From Candidatus Marinacidobacterales bacterium (lineage in GTDB: Bacteria > Acidobacteriota > Vicinamibacteria > Marinacidobacterales > DATDRI01), in assembly GCA_965219415.1 (NCBI GenBank), contig CBDCNP010000002.1, positions 2,240,001-2,304,000 of the forward strand: a DNA stretch of 64,000 nt. Direction: 5' to 3'. Numbering within the stretch: the first letter of the stretch is position 1; the number at the start of each line of letters is the position of its first letter. Below are positions 1 through 10,730 of the stretch, one piece after another. Made by a program: the position numbers and the translations under genes. A model generated the notes under the pieces. That model saw only the letters and a program-made list of their open reading frames with translations. It did no database searches and was not told the DNA's origin.

Positions 1-945
1 CCACCACCCCTGGTGCGACCGGTACCACTCTACCGTGGAGGCCAGCCCCTCGTCGAAGTCGACACTGGACCTAAAGCCCAGTCCGCGAAGCCGGGTCGTA
101 TCTAGGCTATAGCGACGGTCGTGCCCGGGCCGGTCGACCACCTGCTTTATCAGACTCTTGGGCTTTCCCACGAGTTCCAAGATTCGCTCGGTAAGCTCGA
201 GGTTGCTGAGCTCGGTGCCGCCCCCGATATTATAAGTCGTGCCGGGTTGCCCCTTCTCGATCACGAGATCCAGAGCACGGCAATGATCCTCCACGTGTAG
301 CCAGTCGCGAACCTGAAGCCCATCACCGTAGAGCGGCAGCGGCTCGCCCTCCATCGAGTTCGTGATGAACAACGGGATGACTTTCTCCGGATACTGGCGA
401 GGACCGTAGTTGTTCGACGCCCTAGTGACGATCACCGGCAGCCCGTATGTCGTGAAGTAGGAGTAGGCTAAGCGATCCGCTCCCGCCTTGCTCGCGGAAT
501 AAGGATTACGCGGAGCCAGCGGATCCTCCTCGCGGGCAGATCCAGAGCCTATACTCCCGTAGACCTCGTCGGTCGAAATCTGGACGAAAAGCTGCGACCT
601 GGACTCTAGGCGAACTGCTTCCAAAAGAACGAAAGTGCCATAGACATCCGTGAGAATGAACTGACCAGCATCGTGGATGGAGCGATCGACATGAGTCTCC
701 GCAGCAAAGTTAACGATGATGTCCGCCTCGGCAACCAGTGGCTCCACCGCCGAGCGATCGCATATGTCTCCCTTGACGAAACGGTAACCCGAATGCGCCT
801 CCAAACCTTCCAGGTTCGCCAGGTTCCCAGCGTAAGTAAGCTTATCAAGGTTTGTAACGCGCCAATCCGGATGGGCTCGGGTCAGAGAATGAATGAAGTT
901 ACTACCAATGAAGCCCGCGCCACCAGTCACGAGGATGTGGGTCAT
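1..945 (-). CDS. rfbB: dTDP-glucose 4,6-dehydratase (3' end outside window)
   Basis: ATG at 945 overlaps the rfbA stop (ATGA). My translation gives MTHILVTGGAGFIGSNF, STDEVYG, PYSASKA, NNYGP and DRPGHDRRY. It is missing from the ORF track because it runs off the window. Confidence 0.95.
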   Translation of the reverse strand, partial: MTHILVTGGAGFIGSNFIHSLTRAHPDWRVTNLDKLTYAGNLANLEGLEAHSGYRFVKGDICDRSAVEPLVAEADIIVNFAAETHVDRSIHDAGQFILTDVYGTFVLLEAVRLESRSQLFVQISTDEVYGSIGSGSAREEDPLAPRNPYSASKAGADRLAYSYFTTYGLPVIVTRASNNYGPRQYPEKVIPLFITNSMEGEPLPLYGDGLQVRDWLHVEDHCRALDLVIEKGQPGTTYNIGGGTELSNLELTERILELVGKPKSLIKQVVDRPGHDRRYSLDTTRLRGLGFRSSVDFDEGLASTVEWYRSHQGWW

Positions 946-2006
946 GTAACGTCGACCTGGCTACTGTCTCCCAACATGAAACGATGGGCCTTGGGTGTTG
1001 ACTGGGAGCGCTCGATGCGAACGCTGTAGCCCACCAGGCTGTCGACCATACGGCCGCCCAGCTCTAGGATGACACTGCCCGATAAGATAATGCTGTGCTC
1101 GACTTCACTCGCTCTAATGTGAACGTTGTTTTGTATCGAGGTAAAGGGACCGACGTAGGAGCGCTCGATTCGTGAGCCTGCTCCGATGATCGCTGGCCCG
1201 CGCACGACACTCCCGATGATCTCCGCGCCTGCGTCGATCACGACCTTGCCTTCGACACGCGACTCACTATCCACCCGACCGGCCACGCTTGGTTCCAGGC
1301 TATCTAGTACCAACCGATTCGCTTCCAAGATGTCATCGCGCTTGCCGGTGTCCTTCCACCAGCCGTCGACCACATGGGGGCTCACCTCATGGCCATGATC
1401 GATCAGGTACTGGATAGCATCGGTGATCTCCAGCTCGTTTCGAAGAGACGGGCTGATTGCGCGCGCCGCTTCGAAGATGGGAGCGCTGAACATGTACACA
1501 CCTACCAGGGCGAGATCGCTTCGGGGTTTTTGGGGTTTCTCCTGTAGGCGTGTTACTCGGCCATCTGTGAGCTCCGCGACTCCGAACTGCTCGGGATGCG
1601 GGACACGCGCCAACAAGATCTGAGCGGTTGGTCGTTTCTCGCGGAACTCTCCGACCAAGCTCTCGATACCATTCGCGAGAATATTGTCCCCCAGATACAT
1701 CACGAACGGATCCTTCGCCACAAACTCCTCCGCGGTCAGCACCGCGTGGGCGAGCCCTAGCGGAGCCTCCTGAGGAATAAGACCGATCTTCGCTCCCCAT
1801 CGCGACCCGTCGCCGACCGCCTCCTTAATTTCATTCGCCGTTTCTCCAACGATGATGCCGATGTCAGAGATCCCCGCGGCGCGGATAGCCTCGATGCCGT
1901 AAAAAAGGATGGGCTTGTTCGCCACCGGCATGAGCTGCTTGGCTCTAGTGTGGGTGAGCGGTCGGAGCCGGCTCCCGGTCCCGCCACTCAGGATAAGGCC
2001 CTTCAT
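942..2006 (-). CDS. rfbA: glucose-1-phosphate thymidylyltransferase, long form with C-terminal left-handed beta-helix
   Basis: GGTGSRLRPLT, KQLMPVANKP, GLAHAV, YLGDN and ELEITDAI motifs; 354 aa; adjacent to rfbB. Confidence 0.93.
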   Translation of the reverse strand: MKGLILSGGTGSRLRPLTHTRAKQLMPVANKPILFYGIEAIRAAGISDIGIIVGETANEIKEAVGDGSRWGAKIGLIPQEAPLGLAHAVLTAEEFVAKDPFVMYLGDNILANGIESLVGEFREKRPTAQILLARVPHPEQFGVAELTDGRVTRLQEKPQKPRSDLALVGVYMFSAPIFEAARAISPSLRNELEITDAIQYLIDHGHEVSPHVVDGWWKDTGKRDDILEANRLVLDSLEPSVAGRVDSESRVEGKVVIDAGAEIIGSVVRGPAIIGAGSRIERSYVGPFTSIQNNVHIRASEVEHSIILSGSVILELGGRMVDSLVGYSVRIERSQSTPKAHRFMLGDSSQVDVT

Positions 2007-4211
2007 CTATTGGATCCGCGATTGCCCGCCGAGTTGGGTGCCGAACGACCCGATGTTGGCCAGCGTGATGCCAACCCGGAAGAGATTCTCGTCCCGAACC
2101 GTACCGAAACGGTATCGGGCCCACTCCGCCATGAAGCCGCAACACTGAATGTTGTAGTCGACACTCGCCCGGACCAGGTTCAGCTCGGCCCGCTCGACGT
2201 CGTAGGCGGACTCGAAGCGCAATCGAACGGTGCGTGTCACGTTCAAACTGGTAACGCCGCGAAGGTTCCGGCGCTCTCGGCCGGAAGTAAGTTGTACGCT
2301 TTGGGCCAGCGAGCCGCTGACGTTGCCCCACCCACCACCGTAACTCCCGACCAAGCTCATCGAGCGCATCCTCTTGAAATTGACGTCATACTCGAAATTC
2401 CAGGAAGCGGCCAGTCGGCCGGTAGGACGGAAGCGTAGCTTCGAAGTAATCGGGGAATAGCTGCTGGGAACGCCGTCCTCGGTGAAAAAGGGCGTACTGA
2501 ATTGGCGATCGTAGAGGCTGGCATCGACCTGGAGAAAGTATCTCTGTGCAAGCGTCCAGGTGAGAAACTCGTAGGGAACTGCTTTGTTGCTCTTGCCAAT
2601 TTTGCGCTTGGCCAGAAATCGATTCACGAGAGAAAAGGAAAACTGGTTGGTACCCGGAACGTAGTCGTTGGAGTCGAACTTGGGGATGTCTCCGAAGTTG
2701 TCGACCAGCGAGCGATAGCTCCAAATGAGCTGCGGCTCGATAACGTGCTTGTACTTTTCCGCATATCCGTTCCCGGGGGTATTGAAAATGCGAGAAAAAG
2801 TCGGTCCCCTTACGTCGACACGAACCTCGCTGTAAGTTCGGTCCAAAGCATCTCCGGTCACTTCTCCAGCCGAGTTAGTTTGCTGCGAGTAGCGCGTGAA
2901 GCGCGTGATGAACGAGGTTCGCGCGGTCAGGAAAGGCCACACATTGAAAGGGTAGGAAATAGTTGGCAGGACGTCGTAGCGTTGATAATCAACCAGATCG
3001 TCTCGCACACTTCGGGAAAACGAAGAAGCGGAAGTGCTAAAACCGAACAAGATCGGTGTCGGGCCGATCTTCGTCTGCCTACCCTGGAAAGCGACGCGGG
3101 GAAGTATCTCCCGGAAACTAATTCTATCTGTGAAAGACGTCTCATTGCGATCGTAGAGGAAACGTAGGGTGTAAGCCGACCAGGATCGAGCCACGTTCAC
3201 GGTGGCTCGCTTCGAGCGGCGGGTCAAATCTTTATAGCTCTCCTGGAACGTTTGCTGGAAGGCGAAGGAGCTGAAGTAATCGACGCGCGCAATCGTCGAG
3301 AAGTCGCCCGGAAGCCGCTGGTTAACGTTCGCCCTGATCTGCCATTCCTTCTGTTCTAAAACCTTGTCGTCGATGTAGTAGGACTCGAAGCGACCCCGCG
3401 ACGCTCCAGAAAGCAGGTAGCGGTACTCGGTTCCTAGCCCCACCCCACTCTGGGAAAACCAATCGAAGTTGATGGTCGCATCGTGGGAGCGGCTGATGGC
3501 CCAGAAGAAACCCTGGCTGACCATGAACCCCTTGAAGCTAGAGTTTCCTATTTGGGGAAGCAGCAAGCCCGTCGATCGGTTTTTTTCATCGATCGGGTAG
3601 TACAGATACGGCAGATAGAAGACCGGCAACGACTTCACCTTAAGGAACGCGCCGTGGAGGGAAACATGGTGGTCGCGACGGATGATGGCCTTTCCCGAGG
3701 TGAATCGCCAGCGAGGCGTCGGCTGAGCGCAAGACGTGAACGCTCCTCGTTCCACGACGTAGATATCGTCCGACTTCTTCTCCACCACATCACCTTGGAA
3801 GTAAAGATCGTTGCCCGAGCTTCCGGAGGCGTTGTAGAACCTGCCCGTCCCGGTCTCGAGATCGACTTCCATCCGATCACCAACGATCTTTTGGTTGCCC
3901 TGCTGAAAGACGACGTTGCCTTCCGCGACGACTCGCATCTCCTCGTTCCAGAAATCGACTTTGTCTGCCGAGATGCGGATGTCCCCCGACACGATGTCCA
4001 CGTAGCCGGTCGCCTTGACATGCCCCTTCTCGATCTGTTCTTGCTCATCGGCGTTGAGAGTGACCGAGCCGGGCGGGAGAGGAGCCGGTGATTGGGCCTG
4101 TTGAGCCTGCTGGGATTGTCCTTTTTGCCGAGAAGAGTCGTCTTCTTGGCCGTTTTGCCCGCGGGCGACGGTCGCTGCGGTTAGAAGAAAGATAATTATC
4201 AGTCTCAACAT
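2007..4211 (-). CDS. lptD: LPS assembly outer-membrane protein LptD
   Basis: Signal peptide from ATG 4211 (MLRLIIIFLL), OstA-like N-terminal domain, FTSC-x4-PRW and RSTGLLLP motifs, beta-barrel-like C-terminus. Confidence 0.88.
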   Translation of the reverse strand: MLRLIIIFLLTAATVARGQNGQEDDSSRQKGQSQQAQQAQSPAPLPPGSVTLNADEQEQIEKGHVKATGYVDIVSGDIRISADKVDFWNEEMRVVAEGNVVFQQGNQKIVGDRMEVDLETGTGRFYNASGSSGNDLYFQGDVVEKKSDDIYVVERGAFTSCAQPTPRWRFTSGKAIIRRDHHVSLHGAFLKVKSLPVFYLPYLYYPIDEKNRSTGLLLPQIGNSSFKGFMVSQGFFWAISRSHDATINFDWFSQSGVGLGTEYRYLLSGASRGRFESYYIDDKVLEQKEWQIRANVNQRLPGDFSTIARVDYFSSFAFQQTFQESYKDLTRRSKRATVNVARSWSAYTLRFLYDRNETSFTDRISFREILPRVAFQGRQTKIGPTPILFGFSTSASSFSRSVRDDLVDYQRYDVLPTISYPFNVWPFLTARTSFITRFTRYSQQTNSAGEVTGDALDRTYSEVRVDVRGPTFSRIFNTPGNGYAEKYKHVIEPQLIWSYRSLVDNFGDIPKFDSNDYVPGTNQFSFSLVNRFLAKRKIGKSNKAVPYEFLTWTLAQRYFLQVDASLYDRQFSTPFFTEDGVPSSYSPITSKLRFRPTGRLAASWNFEYDVNFKRMRSMSLVGSYGGGWGNVSGSLAQSVQLTSGRERRNLRGVTSLNVTRTVRLRFESAYDVERAELNLVRASVDYNIQCCGFMAEWARYRFGTVRDENLFRVGITLANIGSFGTQLGGQSRIQ

Positions 4212-4386
4212 CGAGCGAGACCCGATCTCGACCCCCTTAGTCCTTTTGGACGAACGCATTATGCACCGTGGGCACACGTTTTTCCAAGCCCACTTTCCTT
4301 ATCATCCCGTAACTGGTTCCCTAGAGGGACTTACGCTCCTACTGGCGCTTTGCCTGCGGACAGGTCATGCTTACGGTCTTAGGCGA

Positions 4387-5823
4387 ATGACCGTCACGGC
4401 CGTGAAACCAGAGGTCTTGCTCGTATCGTGTTACGAGCTTGGCCACCAGCCCATGGGGCTTGCCAGCCCCATGGCGTTCCTTGCCCGAGCCGGGTTCCCG
4501 GTCACCGCGGTCGATGTCTCGGTCGACTCTTTGGAGAAGCACGCGGACCTCGTCCGTGGGGCCCGCCTTGTCGCCATCTCCGTTCCCATGCACACCGCCC
4601 TGCGTTTGGGCTCACGTGTCGCACGGCGAATCCGGGAATTGAATCCGAGCTGCCATCTTTGTTTTTACGGACTGTACGCAACCCTAAATCGTGGTTACCT
4701 CCTACAGAACGGCGCGGACTCGGTCTTGGGAGGAGAGTCGGAGCAGTCTTTGGTACGCCTCGCGGAAGGACTTGCCCAAGGCGGCGACACCCTCCCAACC
4801 GTCTCCGAGCCGGTGCTGGAGCGACTTCGGTTCCCGGTGCCACTACGTCGCGGCCTGCCGCCACTCGAGAAGTACGCCCACTTGGAACGCGATGGAAACC
4901 ACGGCCCGGTCGGCTATGTCGAAGCGAGTCGTGGATGCCTGCGCCACTGCTTGCATTGCCCGATCCCGCCGGTATACCAAGGTCGCTTCTTCGTAGTACC
5001 CCAGGACGTCGTGCTCGACGACATTCGCCAGCTCGTCGACTCGGGAGCCACCCACATCACATTTGGGGATCCCGATTTCTTGAACGGACCGGGGCATTCA
5101 CTGGCGGTGGCCCGTACGCTCCACCAGGAGTTTCCCGAGCTCACGTTCGACGTCACCGCGAAAGTGGAGCACATTCTGAAACACCGAGCCTTGTTACCGG
5201 AGCTCCGCCGCCAAGGCTGTATCTTCGTCGTGTCCGCCATCGAATCCCTCAGCGATCACGTTCTGAATCAGCTCGACAAAGGACACACGCGCCAAGACGC
5301 CATCGAAGCGGTGAGCGCTCTCCGACTCGCCGGAATCGCGCCACGCCCGACATGGGTCTCGTTCACACCCTGGACGACGCTTCGGGACTATCTCGACGTC
5401 CTCGAGTGGGTGGATGAGGAGGGGATTATCGGTCATGTCGACCCCGTACAATTCGCGGTCCGCCTGCTCGTTCCCCCCGGCTCCTTACTGCTAGAGAGGG
5501 CGGCGATTCAGCCCTTCTTGGAACCACTCGTGCCAGAGAGGTTCACTCATCCGTGGAAACACCCCGACCCGAGAATGGATCTCCTCCACGATCGCGTCAG
5601 CGAGCTCGTCGAGGCATCCGTTTCGAATGACGAGGATCCTTTTGAGACTTTTTCACGCATCCGCGAATTGGCTTGGTCCAAGCTCGAAACGGGAAAACCC
5701 CCGCCAGAGCGAAGAGGAAGGTCCGAGCGTGGAACGCACCCCCCTCGGCTCACCGAAGCGTGGTTCTGTTGATCAGAGCCCACCGAGGGCCAGTTCGGCC
5801 CGCTGGAGAATCCGGGCATTTGA
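4387..5823 (+). CDS. CUAEP/CCAEP-tail-type radical SAM protein, predicted selenoprotein (UGA at 5770-5772 read as Sec)
   Basis: N-terminal SCYELGHQP domain and CxxxCxxC motif (CLRHCLHC). Reading through TGA gives RLTEAWFC-U-SEPTEGQFGPLENPGI* with the next stop at 5821-5823. Confidence 0.88.
5783..5806 (+). promoter_or_regulatory. candidate bacterial SECIS hairpin
   Basis: CCG-A-GGGCC-[AGUUC]-GGCCC-GC-UGG. The apical loop starts 19 nt after the UGA and has GU at loop positions 2-3. Confidence 0.62.
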
Positions 5824-5872
5824 GGGCGAAACGCAGACCGCCTATGATGAAGCGGAATAGGGAGAGTATGAG

Positions 5873-6469
5873 ATGAGCGAAGAGATCAAGATCACCGCCG
5901 AGCCGAAGGATACAGAGACCTGCAGCTTCATCATCGATCGACCGGTCCATGAAGAAGGCTCCGCCTACTTTGACGATCCAGACCGGGCCAGTGGCTCTCC
6001 GTTACCTGAAAAACTCTTTGCCCTGGGTGGCGTCAAGACCGTTCTGGTGCAGGACAACAAAGTGACCATCACCGTGGGAGACACCGGCGCCGATTGGCTT
6101 CCGTTGGCCAAGCAAGTCGGTGCGACCATCCGCACCGTAATCGAATCGGGCGAGAAACCCATCTCCGCCTCCCTGCTCGACTCCATGCCTCCCTCCGAGC
6201 AGATCAAGAAGGTGATAGAAGAGCTCTTCATTCGGGAGATCAACCCCGCGATTGCCGCGCATGGCGGTTTCGTGGAGCTGCTAGATGTGAAGGGGAACGA
6301 AGTCTATCTCCGTCTTGGAGGTGGGTGCCAAGGTTGCGGGATGGCGGATGTTACCCTGAAACAGGGAATAGAAACCTCCATCCGCAAGGCGGTGCCCGAG
6401 ATCGGAGCCATCATGGACACGACCGACCACGCGGCGGGAAGAAACCCCTATTACGCGCCCTCCAAGTAG
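5873..6469 (+). CDS. nfuA: NfuA/NifU-type Fe-S cluster carrier with N-terminal scaffold domain
   Basis: INPAIAAHGGFVELLDV and GGGCQGC (CxxC) motifs, ending DHAAGRNPYY; GGAGAG ribosome-binding site upstream. Confidence 0.88.
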   Translation: MSEEIKITAEPKDTETCSFIIDRPVHEEGSAYFDDPDRASGSPLPEKLFALGGVKTVLVQDNKVTITVGDTGADWLPLAKQVGATIRTVIESGEKPISASLLDSMPPSEQIKKVIEELFIREINPAIAAHGGFVELLDVKGNEVYLRLGGGCQGCGMADVTLKQGIETSIRKAVPEIGAIMDTTDHAAGRNPYYAPSK

Positions 6470-6514
6470 GCAGGCGGCAAGAAAAGCCAGCCCGCGCTCA
6501 CGGCCCCACCTGGT

Positions 6515-6536
6515 AGTGTCCTAATTTTAGGACACT
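6515..6536. promoter_or_regulatory. 22-bp palindrome, putative operator
   Basis: AGTGTCCTAA-TT-TTAGGACACT: perfect 10-bp arms, intergenic, no U-tract. Confidence 0.6.
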
Positions 6537-6554
6537 CCCCCCCGCCTTCCCCTG

Positions 6555-6584
6555 TTGACTAGCCCCCAGGGTCAGTGTTATATG
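6555..6584 (+). promoter_or_regulatory. putative sigma70-type promoter
   Basis: TTGACT (6555-6560), 18-bp spacer ending TGn, TATATG (6579-6584). Confidence 0.4.
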
Positions 6585-6727
6585 TCCCTACCCAACCAAA
6601 AGTGGGCTGCAACCAAACCTTACAGCCTAAAACAGTAGCCTTTTTCGCGGCTTTTCTTGGCGTACGAGAGTACTGATGTGTGCTTAACCGCCACGTCGAG
6701 TTGACGGAGTCTACCTTGATGCAACAG

Positions 6728-7394
6728 ATGGGTGTTAAGGTCGTTTGGTTCTGCACGAGCTTGAGCAACCCCAACGAGACGAGCCTCTGCCAATCTCGAT
6801 GCCTTGAATTTCCTGCGCGCCCTCAAGGGGGAGCGCATCGAGGGGGAAGCAACGATCCCCATCGCCGGTCAAAATCGGCGTCTCAGCAATTCCAACCTGG
6901 ATGAAGCGATCGACTGGTTCGGAGAAATGGTCGCCGGCTATTTCCAGCGTCAGGGGATAGATTCGCCGTTTTACCTGGTTCCCATTCCGGACACCAACAC
7001 GACGTTGGAATCGACTACTGGCCCCTGGACGTCGGTGACAGCGATAGCTATTGCCTCCAAGTTCGAAGGTGATGTGGAAGCTCTAGACGTTCTTCGCTGG
7101 AAAAAGAATCTCTCCCACCTCAGTGCGGAGGCGCAGGACTCCACTCGGCTATACGAGAACCTAGCCCTGCTCGGAAAGAACAAATGGGACAAACCGGTAG
7201 TGCTGGTGGACTACCTGGCGGCTAACGCGGCGCGAGCCCAGGCCTGTGAGGCGTTCTTGAGAGAGAACGGCGCTCGCGTCCTTCTGTGTGTGTTTGCGGG
7301 AAGAATCGTCCCGCAGAAGCCCGAGAAGAACTTTGCGGTTTTCAAAGCCGAGGTCGCGGGAATCAACCCTGGTCCCCCTCGCTCGGCGGACTGA
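6728..7394 (+). pseudogene. phosphoribosyltransferase-fold (ComF-like) protein, probable frameshift near 6790
   Basis: MGVKVVWFCT (ATG 6728) continues in another frame as ANLDALNFLRALKGE. Contains LVPIP and LDVLRW; the PRPP loop is degenerate (VVLVDYLAANA). Confidence 0.55.
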
Positions 7395-8616
7395 TGACGA
7401 ATTCGAGGCAAGCGGCAGCCTCTCTGAGAGCGCTTTCGACGGCGGCGAGAGTTTCGGCGCGGGCAAATATGAAACCGAGATAACTGGAGCCTTCCGGGAG
7501 GGGCGCCAAGATCTTGCCGAGGTGTGAGGTGATCGTCACCTCTTGAACTCCGGAAACCGCCTCCGCCTCTCTCTCCCCCCGGACGCCTTTGAGAACGCCC
7601 GCCTGAGGAATCGGCATCATCATGACACCGGATGCAACGGACTCGCGGGTTAGTGTACTGACATCCATCCCCAATGCGTGCCGAAGAAGCAACTCCTCGA
7701 GCGAAAACCCCACACCGAACCTGAGCGACCGAGAACAAAGCCCCCCGATGGATCGCCCGGCGATCTCGATGACCCACACCCCCTCGGAGTTCAACCGAAG
7801 CTCGGCGTGGATGGGTCCCTCTCGAAGCCCTAGTGCCTCGGCCGCTTTTGCGGTGGTAGCCGCGATCGCAGATTGACGTCCCTCGGACAATCTGGACGGG
7901 GTCACGTAAATCGTTTCTTCGAAGAAAGGCCCCTCTAACGGATCGGGCTTGTCGAAGAGAGCGAGCACTTTGAGCTCTCCCCCAGTCATGACTCCCTCGA
8001 GGGCGACCTCGACACCCGATACGTAGTCTTCGACCAATATCTGGCGAGCCAACGGCCCGCCACGACGCACTAGATCGGGGTCGCGAAGAATCGCTTTTAA
8101 TCGTTCGAAAGCCGAAACGAATTCATGTTCGTCATTGGCGCGCATCACACCGCGGCTCGCCGCAAGGAAGACGGGTTTCAAAACACACGGGTATCCGACA
8201 CGGCTCGCTATGTCCTCTGTGTCATCGGCTACCGCAAAGAGCCGGTGGGCGGGAACGAGCACAGCTCCCGAGAGCATTTCTCTCATCACATGCTTCAAAC
8301 GGGTCGCGGTGGCGGCCTGGGGAGAATTGTGGGCGAGTCCGACCGCCTGCGAAATGGCAGCCGCTATGACTGCGGTGTCCTCGTCGACCGAGACCACCGC
8401 CTGGAAGGGGTAGTCTCGAGAGAAAGAAAGGGCTTTTTCCGCCGCCGAGTCCGGGTCCAGGAAATCGACGGTAAGTAGCGAGCCCGGCTCTCGGCCCTCC
8501 ATCGTGCTGGGTTGCTCGGAGACGACCACCACCTCCACACCGAGCCTCCCGGCCGCCGCCATGAAATCATGGGTACGGTAGGTATTGGTGGGCAACAAAA
8601 GGAGTACGCGAGGCAT
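7363..8616 (-). CDS. ATP-grasp domain protein (L-amino-acid-ligase-like)
   Basis: PCVLKP, ASRGV, LVEDYVSGVEVALE, HAELR and VIEIAGRSIGG motifs. Confidence 0.88.
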   Translation of the reverse strand: MPRVLLLLPTNTYRTHDFMAAAGRLGVEVVVVSEQPSTMEGREPGSLLTVDFLDPDSAAEKALSFSRDYPFQAVVSVDEDTAVIAAAISQAVGLAHNSPQAATATRLKHVMREMLSGAVLVPAHRLFAVADDTEDIASRVGYPCVLKPVFLAASRGVMRANDEHEFVSAFERLKAILRDPDLVRRGGPLARQILVEDYVSGVEVALEGVMTGGELKVLALFDKPDPLEGPFFEETIYVTPSRLSEGRQSAIAATTAKAAEALGLREGPIHAELRLNSEGVWVIEIAGRSIGGLCSRSLRFGVGFSLEELLLRHALGMDVSTLTRESVASGVMMMPIPQAGVLKGVRGEREAEAVSGVQEVTITSHLGKILAPLPEGSSYLGFIFARAETLAAVESALREAAACLEFVISPPSEGDQG

Positions 8617-8648
8617 AAAGCCGCATCACGGCAAGGGGGCTCGAGAAG

Positions 8649-9005
8649 CTATTTACGGTGAAAGTACGTGTCGGTGCCGTCGAGCCAATCGTGCCGAATG
8701 GGACTGAAGATGTCCACGTCCACCGTATCCTCGAGCGCCTCGGCGCGGTGCGGGACGTTGGGAGGAATGACCACGAACTCGCCGGGTCTTACCGTCACTT
8801 CCTCCTCTGCTTCACCGATCCAGAGACGGAGTGCTCCTTCCATGATGTAGGTGATCTGCTCCGCCTCGTGCGAGTGGGTCGGAACCACGGCGTCTTTCTT
8901 GAGCAGGACGCGAGCCATCATCTCGTTCTTGCCCATCACGATCTGACGACTAATGACCTCCGTCACCTTCTCGACGGGGACCCGATCCCAATTCAGCGGC
9001 TCCAC
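8649..9005 (-). CDS. cupin domain protein
   Basis: HSHEAEQ and PPNVPH metal-binding motifs; DIFSPIRHDW. Confidence 0.88.
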   Translation of the reverse strand: MEPLNWDRVPVEKVTEVISRQIVMGKNEMMARVLLKKDAVVPTHSHEAEQITYIMEGALRLWIGEAEEEVTVRPGEFVVIPPNVPHRAEALEDTVDVDIFSPIRHDWLDGTDTYFHRK

Positions 9006-9593
9006 TCATTCCCCCGTTTGTAAACGGATCGTCTTGATGACGACGGCCTCGACGGGAACGTCCTTATAGGGCCCCTTGCTCCCTGTTTTGACCGTTCTTA
9101 TCTTGTCCACCACGTCCATCCCCTCGGTGACTTCCCCGAAGACCGTATAGCCATAATCCCGTGCGCTCGGTCCTTTGTAGTTCAAGAAAGTATTGTCCTT
9201 GACGTTGATGAAAAACTGCGACGTCGCGCTATGGATTTCGTTGGTGCGCGCCATCACGATGGTGCCGCGGCGGTTCTTCAAGCCATTCCCGGCTTCGTTC
9301 TTGATTGGCTCACCAACAGGTTTCTTCTGCATGTCGGCGGTAAACCCGCCACCCTGAATCATGAAGTTCGGGATGACACGGTGAAAAATGGTGCCGTCGT
9401 AGAACCCATCGTTGACGTAGGCCAGGAAGTTCTCGACCGACACCGGCGCTTTGCTCGGATTGAGACGAACCGTGATGTCTCCCTGGGAGGTCTCAATGAC
9501 CACGATCGGATCATCGGCTCCCTCCACAATGGTTCCGGAAGCCAATACCAGTACTAAGCCAAGCGACCCGAGAAAAAACCGACCGACGCCCAT
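9006..9593 (-). CDS. ppiA: periplasmic cyclophilin-type peptidyl-prolyl isomerase
   Basis: Signal peptide; [23 protein letters not shown] and YTVFGEV motifs. Confidence 0.93.
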
Positions 9594-9660
9594 AAGCGCT
9601 TACCTCCTTTAGGGACGGGAAATCGCTGGTGTTACGCAGAACGAAGCCGAGTATGCCCGA

Positions 9661-10257
9661 TTACTCGACCGCTTGTCCAACCGGAGCACTGCCTCGGGCG
9701 AAGAGGCTCATTTGGACGGGCTGAGGAGCACCGTCGCGGAGTACTCCTTCGTGAACCAATAGCCAACGCTTGGCAGGCAGACCCCCTCCGTAGCCAGTGA
9801 GGGAGCCATCGGCGCCCACCACCCGATGGCAGGGTATGACCAAGGGAATCGGGTTAGCACCGTTGGCCGCCCCGACCGCACGGGAGGCAGCGGGGCTTCC
9901 CGCCAAGTGTGCGATCTCGGAGTAGGACGCAATCCGTCCAAACGGAATTCGAGCCACGCTAGACCAAACCACTTTCTGGAACGGGCTTCCGCGCAGGTCG
10001 AGGGGCAGATCGAAGACCCTCCGGTGGCCTTCGAAATACTGGTCCAGCTGTTGGACGACTTCCGCGTGAGCCGAGCCGCCCGGTAATGTCGATTGTAGTT
10101 GGGCCCCGGGGAAAACCCTCTGCATCCATCGGTCATACCGTCCTGGCCTCGAAGGCTCCTCTGGCAAAGCGATAGCCGCCAGACCAACGGAAGTGAATAC
10201 CAAGCGGAGAGTGCCCAACGGACTATCTAGCGTGGTTCGATAGATGGTCTCGCTCAT
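9661..10257 (-). CDS. ogt: methylated-DNA--protein-cysteine methyltransferase
   Basis: Likely start MSETIYRTT at 10257; RAVGAANGANP and IPCHRV active site. Confidence 0.92.
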   Translation of the reverse strand: MSETIYRTTLDSPLGTLRLVFTSVGLAAIALPEEPSRPGRYDRWMQRVFPGAQLQSTLPGGSAHAEVVQQLDQYFEGHRRVFDLPLDLRGSPFQKVVWSSVARIPFGRIASYSEIAHLAGSPAASRAVGAANGANPIPLVIPCHRVVGADGSLTGYGGGLPAKRWLLVHEGVLRDGAPQPVQMSLFARGSAPVGQAVE

Positions 10258-10316
10258 TACGGTAGGCCAGCCTCCTAATAGCACGGCGGCCCCTAAAGTC
10301 AAAGTGGGAATGTTGA

Positions 10317-10730
10317 CTAGTACTCGAGCGCCTTGAGCATCGCTTCCCACTCCGCCTCGAGCTCGAAGAAGCCCTTCCCGAAAGCGGAGCGGGCGGCCGC
10401 ATCGATGCCGACTTTCTCGGCGCGCTGAAAGAAGCGACGCACGCGCTGCATTCCCTGCCTCTCGAAGAGGTATTGGACGAAAGACCCGATCAATTGGAAC
10501 CGGATTCCATCCGTGGCACGCTTCCCGGCCTGCTGGAGATTGTTTCGCGCACCGGCGGCACGCTGATGGAGGGAAGCTAGTGACCGGCTGGAGGACCAGA
10601 CGAAGGTTGCGAGATCTCGGCGAAGCCAATCCATATTCACCGGGAAACCCTGGGGGCCGCCGAGAACCGGCCCCAACACTCCTATCGAGATGGAGCCGGC
10701 GCCTCCCACTTTGTCTTCTCCTTGATCCAT
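10317..10730 (-). CDS. hypothetical protein; C-terminus resembles the tail of peptidase MA-like proteins (possible fragment)
   Basis: GSFVQYLFERQG...FGKGFFELEAEW pattern; no HExxH motif; N-terminal part looks unrelated. Confidence 0.4.
   Translation of the reverse strand: MDQGEDKVGGAGSISIGVLGPVLGGPQGFPVNMDWLRRDLATFVWSSSRSLASLHQRAAGARNNLQQAGKRATDGIRFQLIGSFVQYLFERQGMQRVRRFFQRAEKVGIDAAARSAFGKGFFELEAEWEAMLKALEY

Follow-up and report, generated by a model that had tools for sequence, protein, structure and literature searches.

Co-occurrence of a probable Cys-Sec-tailed radical SAM enzyme of family NF040546 with a predicted L-amino-acid-ligase-type ATP-grasp enzyme

Genes at the locus

The DNA analyzed here, called the window throughout, is the whole stretch of 64,000 nt that spans positions 2,240,001-2,304,000 of CBDCNP010000002.1, and all coordinates below are window positions. 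It contains a gene for a radical S-adenosylmethionine (SAM) protein of the CUAEP/CCAEP-tail family NF040546 (4387-5823, + strand, assigned by NCBIfam and Pfam) and, on the opposite strand, a gene for a 417-aa ATP-grasp enzyme that is predicted to be of the L-amino-acid-ligase type (7363-8616, - strand, assigned by Pfam and by its solved relatives). The radical SAM protein has 478 residues when an in-frame TGA at 5770-5772 (+ strand) is read as selenocysteine (Sec) at residue 462, a reading that draws on a codon survey, a conserved tail and the Sec machinery of the genome, and a SECIS-like (selenocysteine insertion sequence) hairpin at 5785-5803 (+ strand) is indicated by covariation across TGA-form sequences. 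An iron-sulfur (Fe-S) cluster carrier of the Nfu type is encoded at 5873-6469 (+ strand), where Pfam recognizes an Nfu_N domain and a NifU C-terminal domain with the motif GGCQGCG. A 118-aa Cupin_2 protein is encoded at 8649-9005 (- strand; Pfam Cupin_2, 55.7 bits). The radical SAM gene ends at 5823 and the Nfu gene starts at 5873, which leaves a gap of 49 bp, and the two genes are probably co-transcribed. The ATP-grasp and cupin genes on the - strand converge on the radical SAM and nfu genes on the + strand.

A preliminary description of this locus, made from the sequence, had combined these four genes into one undescribed pathway. The convergent layout that it described agrees with the coordinates and strands, and the four genes are indeed intact, as all of them are full-length family matches.

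Co-occurrence of the radical SAM and ligase genes

The distribution of the two enzymes was analyzed in a phylum sample of 401 genomes. NF040546 had a match in 71 of these genomes, 68 of which were above the cut-off of the model, and the window gene scored 657.1 bits in a genome-level search. Each of the 71 genomes with a match had one copy. Ligase orthologues, counted at E 1e-40 or better in the same 401 genomes, were found in 81. When the two lists were compared by hand, 68 genomes had both genes, 3 had the radical SAM gene only, 13 had the ligase only and 317 had neither, which corresponds to a prevalence of the pair of about 17% of the phylum. The three genomes with the radical SAM gene only were G034 (100% complete), G331 (93%) and G265 (71%, with a partial hit). 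Within the window's own class, 29 genomes had both genes, 10 had neither and none was discordant. In a second phylum, represented by 181 genomes that were sampled around one of the 15 genomes of other phyla treated below, the radical SAM gene was found in three genomes and the ligase in three, and these were the identical three genomes. The preliminary description had linked the two families and had set co-occurrence across unrelated genomes as the test in advance; this co-occurrence was found.

In terms of gene order, flanks of about 8 kb in both directions from 60 hits of the phylum sample were searched by tblastn with the eleven proteins of the window, and 10 hits that were partial or lay on very short contigs were left out. 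A full-length ligase orthologue with 39-56% identity was present in 37 of these 60 loci, in most cases as the next gene downstream of the radical SAM gene, in the same orientation and separated by 6-205 bp. A wider set was drawn from one-genome-per-species contigs, where 589 stretches matched the family alignment, at least 588 of them encoding a relative. The best 80 of the 588 relatives were used as cross-phylum loci, and the record titles assign them to more than 10 phyla: Acidobacteriota, Methylomirabilota/Rokubacteria, Nitrospirota, Planctomycetota, Gemmatimonadota, Chloroflexota, Poribacteria, Myxococcota, Tectomicrobia, Dormibacterota, Nitrospinota, SAR324 and others. A ligase orthologue was found in 36 of the 80 loci, and in 16 of the 32 loci that had the full 7 kb on both sides (hand count).

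The two genes do not have to be neighbours to occur together. In the phylum sample both were present though megabases apart, for example in G055, G082, G279 and G367. From the 16 full-flank loci of other phyla that had no ligase nearby, 15 were examined (L131, which had Nfu only, was left out), and a ligase orthologue was found elsewhere in the genome in all 15. Twelve of these distant ligases were full-length single matches of 535-615 bits, one was partial and two were in pieces. The two split matches (G404:C1:1088221-1089451 and G415:C28:40738-41963) are broken into two or three pieces that overlap or are shifted, and some of the pieces contain internal stops; they may be frameshifts or pseudogenes, though the radical SAM gene looks intact in both genomes.

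The loci of the ligase-only genomes were also considered. No radical SAM gene was found nearby in the seven ligase-only loci that were fetched. One family of the phylum (L182-L184, which are G286, G357 and G389, together with G024) keeps a convergent Nfu-ligase pair in which the ligase is 55-58% identical to that of the window, and at a threshold of E 1e-60 these four genomes had no NF040546 match. These data fit an ancestral cluster of three genes in which Nfu helped without being required, because all three pairwise adjacencies (radical SAM-ligase, radical SAM-Nfu and Nfu-ligase) exist in separate lineages. Taken together, the radical SAM enzyme and the ligase are very likely to be functionally coupled. 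A complex prediction with residues 1-461 of the radical SAM protein and the ligase, run without controls, gave a score of 0.00, which speaks neither for nor against binding.

The radical SAM protein and its relation to ArsL

The radical SAM protein is a full-length member of NF040546. It scored 663.6 bits against this model (cut-off 500, E 1.4e-199) and covered model positions 1-467 of 468. The second-best model was that of ArsL, NF040542, with 301.6 bits (E 1e-89, residues 10-405), and all of the remaining radical SAM models scored 45 bits or less. Kinship with ArsL, which the preliminary description had drawn on, is therefore evident from the model score, though the ArsL cut-off of 450 was not reached. 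Pfam recognized a Radical_SAM domain at 49.8 bits and an N-terminal B12-binding-like domain, whose 32.6 bits exceed the cut-off of 32.1. The cysteines of the CX3CX2C cluster motif (C184, C188 and C191) were invariant in all three alignments inspected, and Cys278 was nearly invariant in the family alignments. The C-terminal tail in the window is WFC-U-SEP, and the family motif W[FY]C[U/C]xEP was present in 137 of the 141 sequences examined. The window protein and a close relative carry Ser after the Sec (CUSEP), not Ala as in CUAEP.

The AlphaFold model of the protein, built from a 56-row alignment, had a mean predicted local distance difference test (pLDDT) score of 93.1, with values of 63-88 for the last 30 residues. 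Its closest solved folds were AprD4 (6fd2, E 1.2e-16, template modeling (TM) score 0.66), TsrM, OxsB, MgmA and MiaB, with identities of 13-20%. The protein resembles AprD4, TsrM, OxsB and MgmA in its predicted fold and B12-binding domain, and it differs from them in its Cys-Sec tail, which all four lack.

ArsL is the nearest characterized relative in sequence. According to the available text of the ArsL papers (2024, 2026 preprints), ArsL has the canonical cluster motif, yet it cleaves SAM to methylthioadenosine and a 3-amino-3-carboxypropyl (ACP) species. The same text describes a C-terminal Cys motif that binds As(III) and is required for product formation and not for SAM cleavage, which agrees with what the preliminary description had stated about this tail. 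It also describes an Fe-ACP organometallic species that may be attacked by a bound nucleophile, and it names ArsL and TsrM as the two canonical radical SAM enzymes that depart from 5'-deoxyadenosyl chemistry. The window enzyme and ArsL share the CX3CX2C core, and both end in a short C-terminal tail where soft-ligand residues stand side by side. Unlike ArsL, the window module has no arsM or arsQ context, and its partner is an ATP-grasp ligase, an enzyme that is not mentioned in the available text of the ArsL papers. As for NF040546 itself, the accessible text of a preprint on selenoprotein families calls the family uncharacterized and names it as one of the rare proteins that contain a Cys-Sec dipeptide.

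Twelve longer ligase homologues included five proteins with both ATP-grasp and Radical_SAM domains, and these were not accepted as true fusions. When the five two-domain sequences and a further one, P0002, were read, the C-terminus of the radical SAM or ligase part was seen to be replaced by an out-of-frame translation (for example '...VLLRGAH...'). They were treated as frameshifted gene calls that reflect adjacency only. Such chimeric calls (P0006, P0007, P0008, P0010 and P0011) could mislead domain-architecture surveys of NF040546. P0002 is a single sequence that joins the ligase to a sulfite-reductase-like protein.

Probable selenocysteine decoding of the TGA codon

With translation table 11, the radical SAM frame ends at the TGA at 5770-5772. 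Readthrough of this codon gives ...EAWFC-U-SEPTEGQFGPLENPGI up to a second TGA at 5821-5823, and the peptide past the first TGA is conserved in 13 aligned family members as EPW[Y/F]C-U-AEPT..Q. The codon at the Sec position was surveyed in 141 family sequences, consisting of the 140 fetched loci and the window. It was TGA in 114 sequences, TGC in 18 and TGT in 5, and the motif was not found in 4. The window has the Sec form that is common to these 114 sequences of the family.

A hairpin begins 15 nt past the U of the UGA, with alignment columns 16-22 paired with columns 28-34. The window forms 6 of the 7 pairs, with the loop AGUUC. Across 113 distinct TGA-form sequences, 83.7% of the cells paired compared to 67.7% after shuffling, cells changed on both sides numbered 182 compared to 84 in the shuffles, and the covariation score was 0.516 compared to 0.238, a value that was matched by none of 500 shuffles. 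When the register of the hairpin was slid, pairing was at most 57%. At least five of the six core pairs were formed in 106 of 112 TGA forms and in 3 of 23 Cys forms. The hairpin is taken as a SECIS element rather than a coding constraint because it is found in the TGA forms and is mostly missing from the Cys forms. A single-sequence RNA fold 3' of the TGA was no better than the shuffles (z -0.69).

The genome of the window also encodes Sec machinery, namely a tRNA-Sec with anticodon TCA, SelB (375.8 bits) and SelD (328.3 bits). The SelD match lies outside the window at G000:C3:3889655-3890587 and has one in-frame TGA inside it, and SelD is probably also a selenoprotein in this organism. In summary, TGA 5770 is very probably decoded as selenocysteine, because the tail is conserved past the TGA, the covarying hairpin is tied to the TGA forms, and tRNA-Sec, SelB and SelD are present. 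The Cys-Sec tail of the preliminary description is well supported by these data.

The ATP-grasp ligase

The ligase has the Pfam architecture ATPgrasp_N, ATP-grasp_4 and LAL_C2, for which scores of 113.2, 55.0 and 40.2 bits were listed. Its top solved relative is the L-amino acid ligase BL00235 (3vot_A, E 1.3e-32, residues 21-400), followed by BacD. From this architecture and the homology to solved ligases, it is predicted to be an ATP-grasp enzyme of the L-amino-acid-ligase class. It has the three-domain architecture in common with the L-amino acid ligases BL00235, BacD and DdaF, and its scores are far too low for the BacD and DdaF equivalogs (60.1 bits against a cut-off of 850 for BacD and 56.6 against 840 for DdaF). 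A search of the ESM Atlas returned just unnamed clusters of identical architecture. An alignment of 52 ligase rows had 40 invariant positions, including Lys108, Lys147, Glu272, Arg274 and the stretch Arg288-x-Ile-Gly-Gly-x-Cys294, and these residues are consistent with an active enzyme. What marks out this ligase subfamily here is its coupling to the radical SAM selenoprotein.

The Nfu-type carrier

Lipoyl synthase is one of the radical SAM enzymes that receive Fe-S clusters from Nfu proteins. The carrier whose gene follows the radical SAM gene after 49 bp resembles NfuA in its NifU C-terminal CXXC domain and differs from it in that the N-terminal domain is of the Nfu_N type. Pfam scored the NifU domain at 77.2 bits and Nfu_N (PF08712) at 46.8 bits. 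Against the NfuA models it scored 85.7 bits (TIGR03341, cut-off 269.35) and 68.4 bits (NF008392, cut-off 268), and the C-terminal domain alone aligned. The distance to the radical SAM gene given in the preliminary description is correct, and the label NfuA was rejected since the NfuA cut-offs were missed and the protein begins with Nfu_N instead of an A-type (IscA-like) domain.

An Nfu homologue adjoined the radical SAM locus in 14 of the 60 phylum loci and in 31 of the 80 cross-phylum loci. By de novo clustering, the 80-locus set had 20 full-length and 9 short Nfu neighbours. Nfu adjoined the ligase in three of five unlinked loci in other phyla and in six of seven ligase-only loci. Nfu is a frequent but dispensable neighbour of the radical SAM-ligase pair. 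The preliminary description had presented it as a part of the pathway; a dedicated or obligatory role does not hold, as it is the sole NifU gene of its genome, many genomes with both enzymes have no NifU domain, and it stays beside the ligase where the radical SAM gene lies elsewhere or is absent.

Cupin, inserted sequence and other neighbouring genes

The cupin gene comes directly after the peptidyl-prolyl isomerase (PPIase) gene and 32 bp before the ligase gene, with all three on the same strand, and it could be co-transcribed in the lineage of the window. A cupin homologue near the radical SAM gene was found by tblastn in none of the 60 phylum loci and in one of the 80 cross-phylum loci, the 87%-identical relative L102. 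A phmmer search of the loci found the cupin in L102 only, plus one chance-level hit (E 0.0057). The cupin is a neighbour in this lineage only and stands outside the conserved module, of which the preliminary description had made it a member.

The window and L102 are collinear at about 86-87% identity over 1-6469 and 7353-10427. Comparison with this relative revealed a lineage-specific 883-bp insertion at 6470-7352, to which no strand is assigned; it is not in L102, where 38 bp separate the flanks, and it is single-copy in the window genome. Mobile-element-type terminal repeats were not recognized around it. Within and over the insertion, the open reading frame (ORF) listing gave an intact orphan ORF of 196 aa (6804-7394, + strand), whose 3' end overlaps the end of the ligase gene by 32 bp. 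The ATP-grasp gene does not directly abut nfu, since the insertion with its intact ORF lies between them. The orphan ORF had no Pfam or NCBIfam match and was found in none of the other 140 loci, and the ESM Atlas gave a weak phosphoribosyltransferase-like lead (score 0.95, with Pribosyltran on 13% of the cluster members). This inserted ORF is a bystander outside the conserved module.

The flanking genes were taken from the ORF listing and family scans. An RmlA-type nucleotidyltransferase (942-2006, - strand) and LptD (2007-4277, - strand) precede the radical SAM gene, and a cyclophilin-type PPIase (9006-9593, - strand) and Ogt (9661-10629 as the ORF is listed, - strand) follow the cupin. The preliminary description had regarded nearby accessory genes as decayed. 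We found that RmlA, LptD, PPIase, Ogt, HAD and Mut7-C are all ordinary family matches by NCBIfam and Pfam. In the tblastn search of the 60 phylum loci, the orphan ORF, PPIase, Ogt, LptD, RmlA, HAD and Mut7-C were each found in none. The PPIase, cupin and ATP-grasp genes (7363-9593, - strand) run in the same direction with gaps of 0 bp and 32 bp, which suggests a lineage-specific operon in which the ligase shares a promoter with a periplasmic-type cyclophilin. A promoter and terminator scan of 4100-9700 gave nothing over chance level that is relevant to operon structure.

Recurrent neighbours in the other loci were identified by de novo clustering of the locus proteins and Pfam scans of 34 cluster representatives, with singletons left out. 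YggX, a protein of Fe(II) trafficking, was a neighbour in 24 of the 60 phylum loci and 12 of the 80 cross-phylum loci. It stands directly beyond the ligase in the former (L055-L101, for example L097:2175-2504) and directly upstream of the radical SAM gene in the latter, which belong to other phyla (for example L180:6666-6983). YggX was not found in the window genome. The 80-locus set further contained DUF169 (13 loci), a CDGSH Fe-S protein (8 loci), and an A-type carrier, a formyltransferase and an ATG22-like major facilitator superfamily (MFS) transporter (6 loci each), and a POT peptide transporter was a neighbour in 12 of the 60 phylum loci. The recurrence of Fe-S and iron helpers fits a radical SAM enzyme that is exposed to oxygen or consumes its cluster. 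DUF169 (COG2043) lies between the radical SAM gene and the ligase in Nitrospirota and some Planctomycetota, in the position that Nfu takes in other lineages (L114, L117, L123, L124 at 8480-9217, L125, L175 and others), and it may be an alternative accessory protein of the radical SAM-ligase module. The sole arsenic-related hit among the neighbours was a small ArsC-family ORF with a thioredoxin fold in 4 loci.

Discussion

A two-enzyme pathway is proposed because the NF040546 radical SAM enzyme is almost always partnered with one ligase across many phyla. The best overall explanation, to which we give a probability of roughly 0.55, is a two-enzyme unit that combines an ArsL-like reaction at a Cys-Sec arm with an amino-acid ligase step, with Nfu being dispensable and the cupin and the inserted ORF being bystanders. 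The radical SAM enzyme and the ligase would act in one small-molecule pathway. The radical SAM enzyme may use its [4Fe-4S] cluster and SAM in the manner of ArsL, with the flexible Cys-Sec arm presenting a soft atom to a cluster-bound ACP group. This atom could be the sulfur or selenium of a thiol or selenol, or a metalloid, and the nearly invariant Cys278 might help the arm to hold it. The ligase would couple an amino acid, through an acyl-phosphate intermediate, to an amine or another amino acid, and in this way it would either provide or consume the amino-acid partner of the pathway. Because genomes with the ligase alone outnumber those with the radical SAM enzyme alone, we regard modification of the ligase product, or of an ordinary ligase substrate, by the radical SAM enzyme as somewhat more probable than the reverse order. 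The order of radical SAM enzyme followed by ligase in the preliminary description is a poor fit with six near-complete ligase-only genomes compared to one near-complete genome that has the radical SAM gene only.

A more specific form of this proposal is that, in more than 10 phyla, the selenoenzyme moves the 3-amino-3-carboxypropyl group of SAM onto sulfur, selenium or a metalloid on the Cys-Sec arm, and that together with its dedicated ligase it yields a new ACP-derived dipeptide (a thio-, seleno- or metalloid-ether). The role of such a compound would be physiological, for instance in the homeostasis of thiols or metals in connection with Fe-S metabolism, and not that of an antibiotic. This version is tentative, and taken with all of its parts we regard it as rather unlikely.

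Several alternatives have to be weighed against the two-enzyme unit. In the four-gene pathway of the preliminary description (radical SAM enzyme, NfuA, ATP-grasp enzyme and cupin), the tail would bind a metalloid, for example As(III), and an arsinothricin-like amino acid would be ligated into a small peptide or cofactor. The ArsL homology and the role of the ArsL tail argue for such a pathway, as do the strong co-occurrence of the radical SAM and ligase genes and the ligase class, which includes BacD, an enzyme that ligates a non-proteinogenic amino acid. This pathway is nevertheless improbable given that the cupin is present in 1 of the 140 loci, that the tail has two soft ligands where ArsL has three, that ligase-only genomes outnumber radical-SAM-only genomes, and that a single-copy gene in about 17% of the phylum looks like physiology more than an antibiotic cluster. 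It also lacks nearby arsenic genes, and the conserved neighbours provide no arsenic or metalloid context that would support an emphasis on a metalloid substrate. The probability of arsenic as the substrate is low at best. Sulfur or selenium chemistry on a thiol-bearing substrate is at least as likely as arsenic chemistry because of the two soft ligands rather than three, the lack of arsenic genes and the broad single-copy distribution.

It is also conceivable that the ligase acts first and makes a dipeptide-like compound, which the radical SAM enzyme then tailors through a 5'-deoxyadenosyl radical in the formation of a C-S or C-Se bond, a rearrangement or an AprD4-like dehydration. The Cys-Sec pair would then serve as a redox or resolving arm, as the C-terminal Cys-Sec of thioredoxin reductase does. 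The asymmetry of the phylogenetic profiles is consistent with this order, and the nearest solved folds are canonical B12-domain radical SAM enzymes with AprD4 in the lead. The peptide and amino-acid transporters that adjoin the pair (POT and the ATG22-like MFS protein) point in the same direction, but these neighbours are limited to related lineages, and the closest sequence family by far is ArsL, which avoids the 5'-deoxyadenosyl radical. We consider such canonical tailoring unlikely, though it has to be taken seriously. Far less likely is that the two enzymes share no pathway at all and are found together through inherited gene order around a housekeeping nfu gene or through shared regulation. 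The single NifU-domain gene of the genome and the convergent Nfu-ligase pair that survives without a radical SAM gene could be explained in this way, and the window ligase is on the opposite strand, which makes co-transcription with the radical SAM gene impossible. However, the co-occurrence holds when the genes are megabases apart, it holds in lineages without any NifU gene, and it is an exact match in the second phylum, where both genes are found in the same 3 of 181 genomes.

Several observations weigh against the two-enzyme unit with an ArsL-like reaction. In terms of the chemistry, the tail of ArsL is R-C-C-L-K-C with three Cys, whereas that of the window enzyme is C-U-S-E-P with one Cys and one Sec, and the window enzyme stays under the ArsL cut-off (301.6 compared to 450 bits). 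Cleavage of SAM of the ArsL (ACP) type is predicted from homology, and we put it at slightly worse than even odds. ArsM, Acr3, ArsB and other arsenic transporter or resistance genes were absent from the window neighbours and from the 34 cluster representatives, a set in which singletons were not scanned. In terms of the coupling, completeness is 97% or more in six of the 13 ligase-only genomes (G024, G039, G081, G286, G357 and G389; G024 is unpublished), and because of these 13 genomes the ligase may be independent of the radical SAM product. The ligase can be retained without the radical SAM enzyme more easily than the radical SAM enzyme without the ligase, which argues mildly against the radical SAM product as the sole substrate of the ligase. 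The co-occurrence counts overstate their statistical weight, as related genomes are not independent, and the samples are incomplete. Finally, the Nfu gene of the window is the sole NifU-domain gene of the 8-Mb genome; NifU domains were found in 278 of the 401 phylum genomes, and many window-class genomes with both enzymes had none. When the radical SAM gene is not linked to the ligase gene, the coordinates show that Nfu tends to adjoin the latter (G082, G130, G069, G164, G021 and G002), and inherited synteny, not a dedicated role, may account for the position of Nfu.

The pairing of NF040546 with an ATP-grasp ligase appears to be unreported in the open-access papers and bioRxiv preprints that were searched, while the name of the family and its lack of a known function are already in print. 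NF040546 is a large selenoprotein family of no known function, with a member in about 17% of the sampled phylum genomes. If this sister family, which is much larger than that of ArsL, shares the ACP chemistry of ArsL, such chemistry would be far commoner than is now thought. The obligate-looking ligase partner gives a concrete two- or three-gene construct for expression, and the ligase-only genomes and the Cys-form enzymes are natural controls that could make this orphan family tractable.

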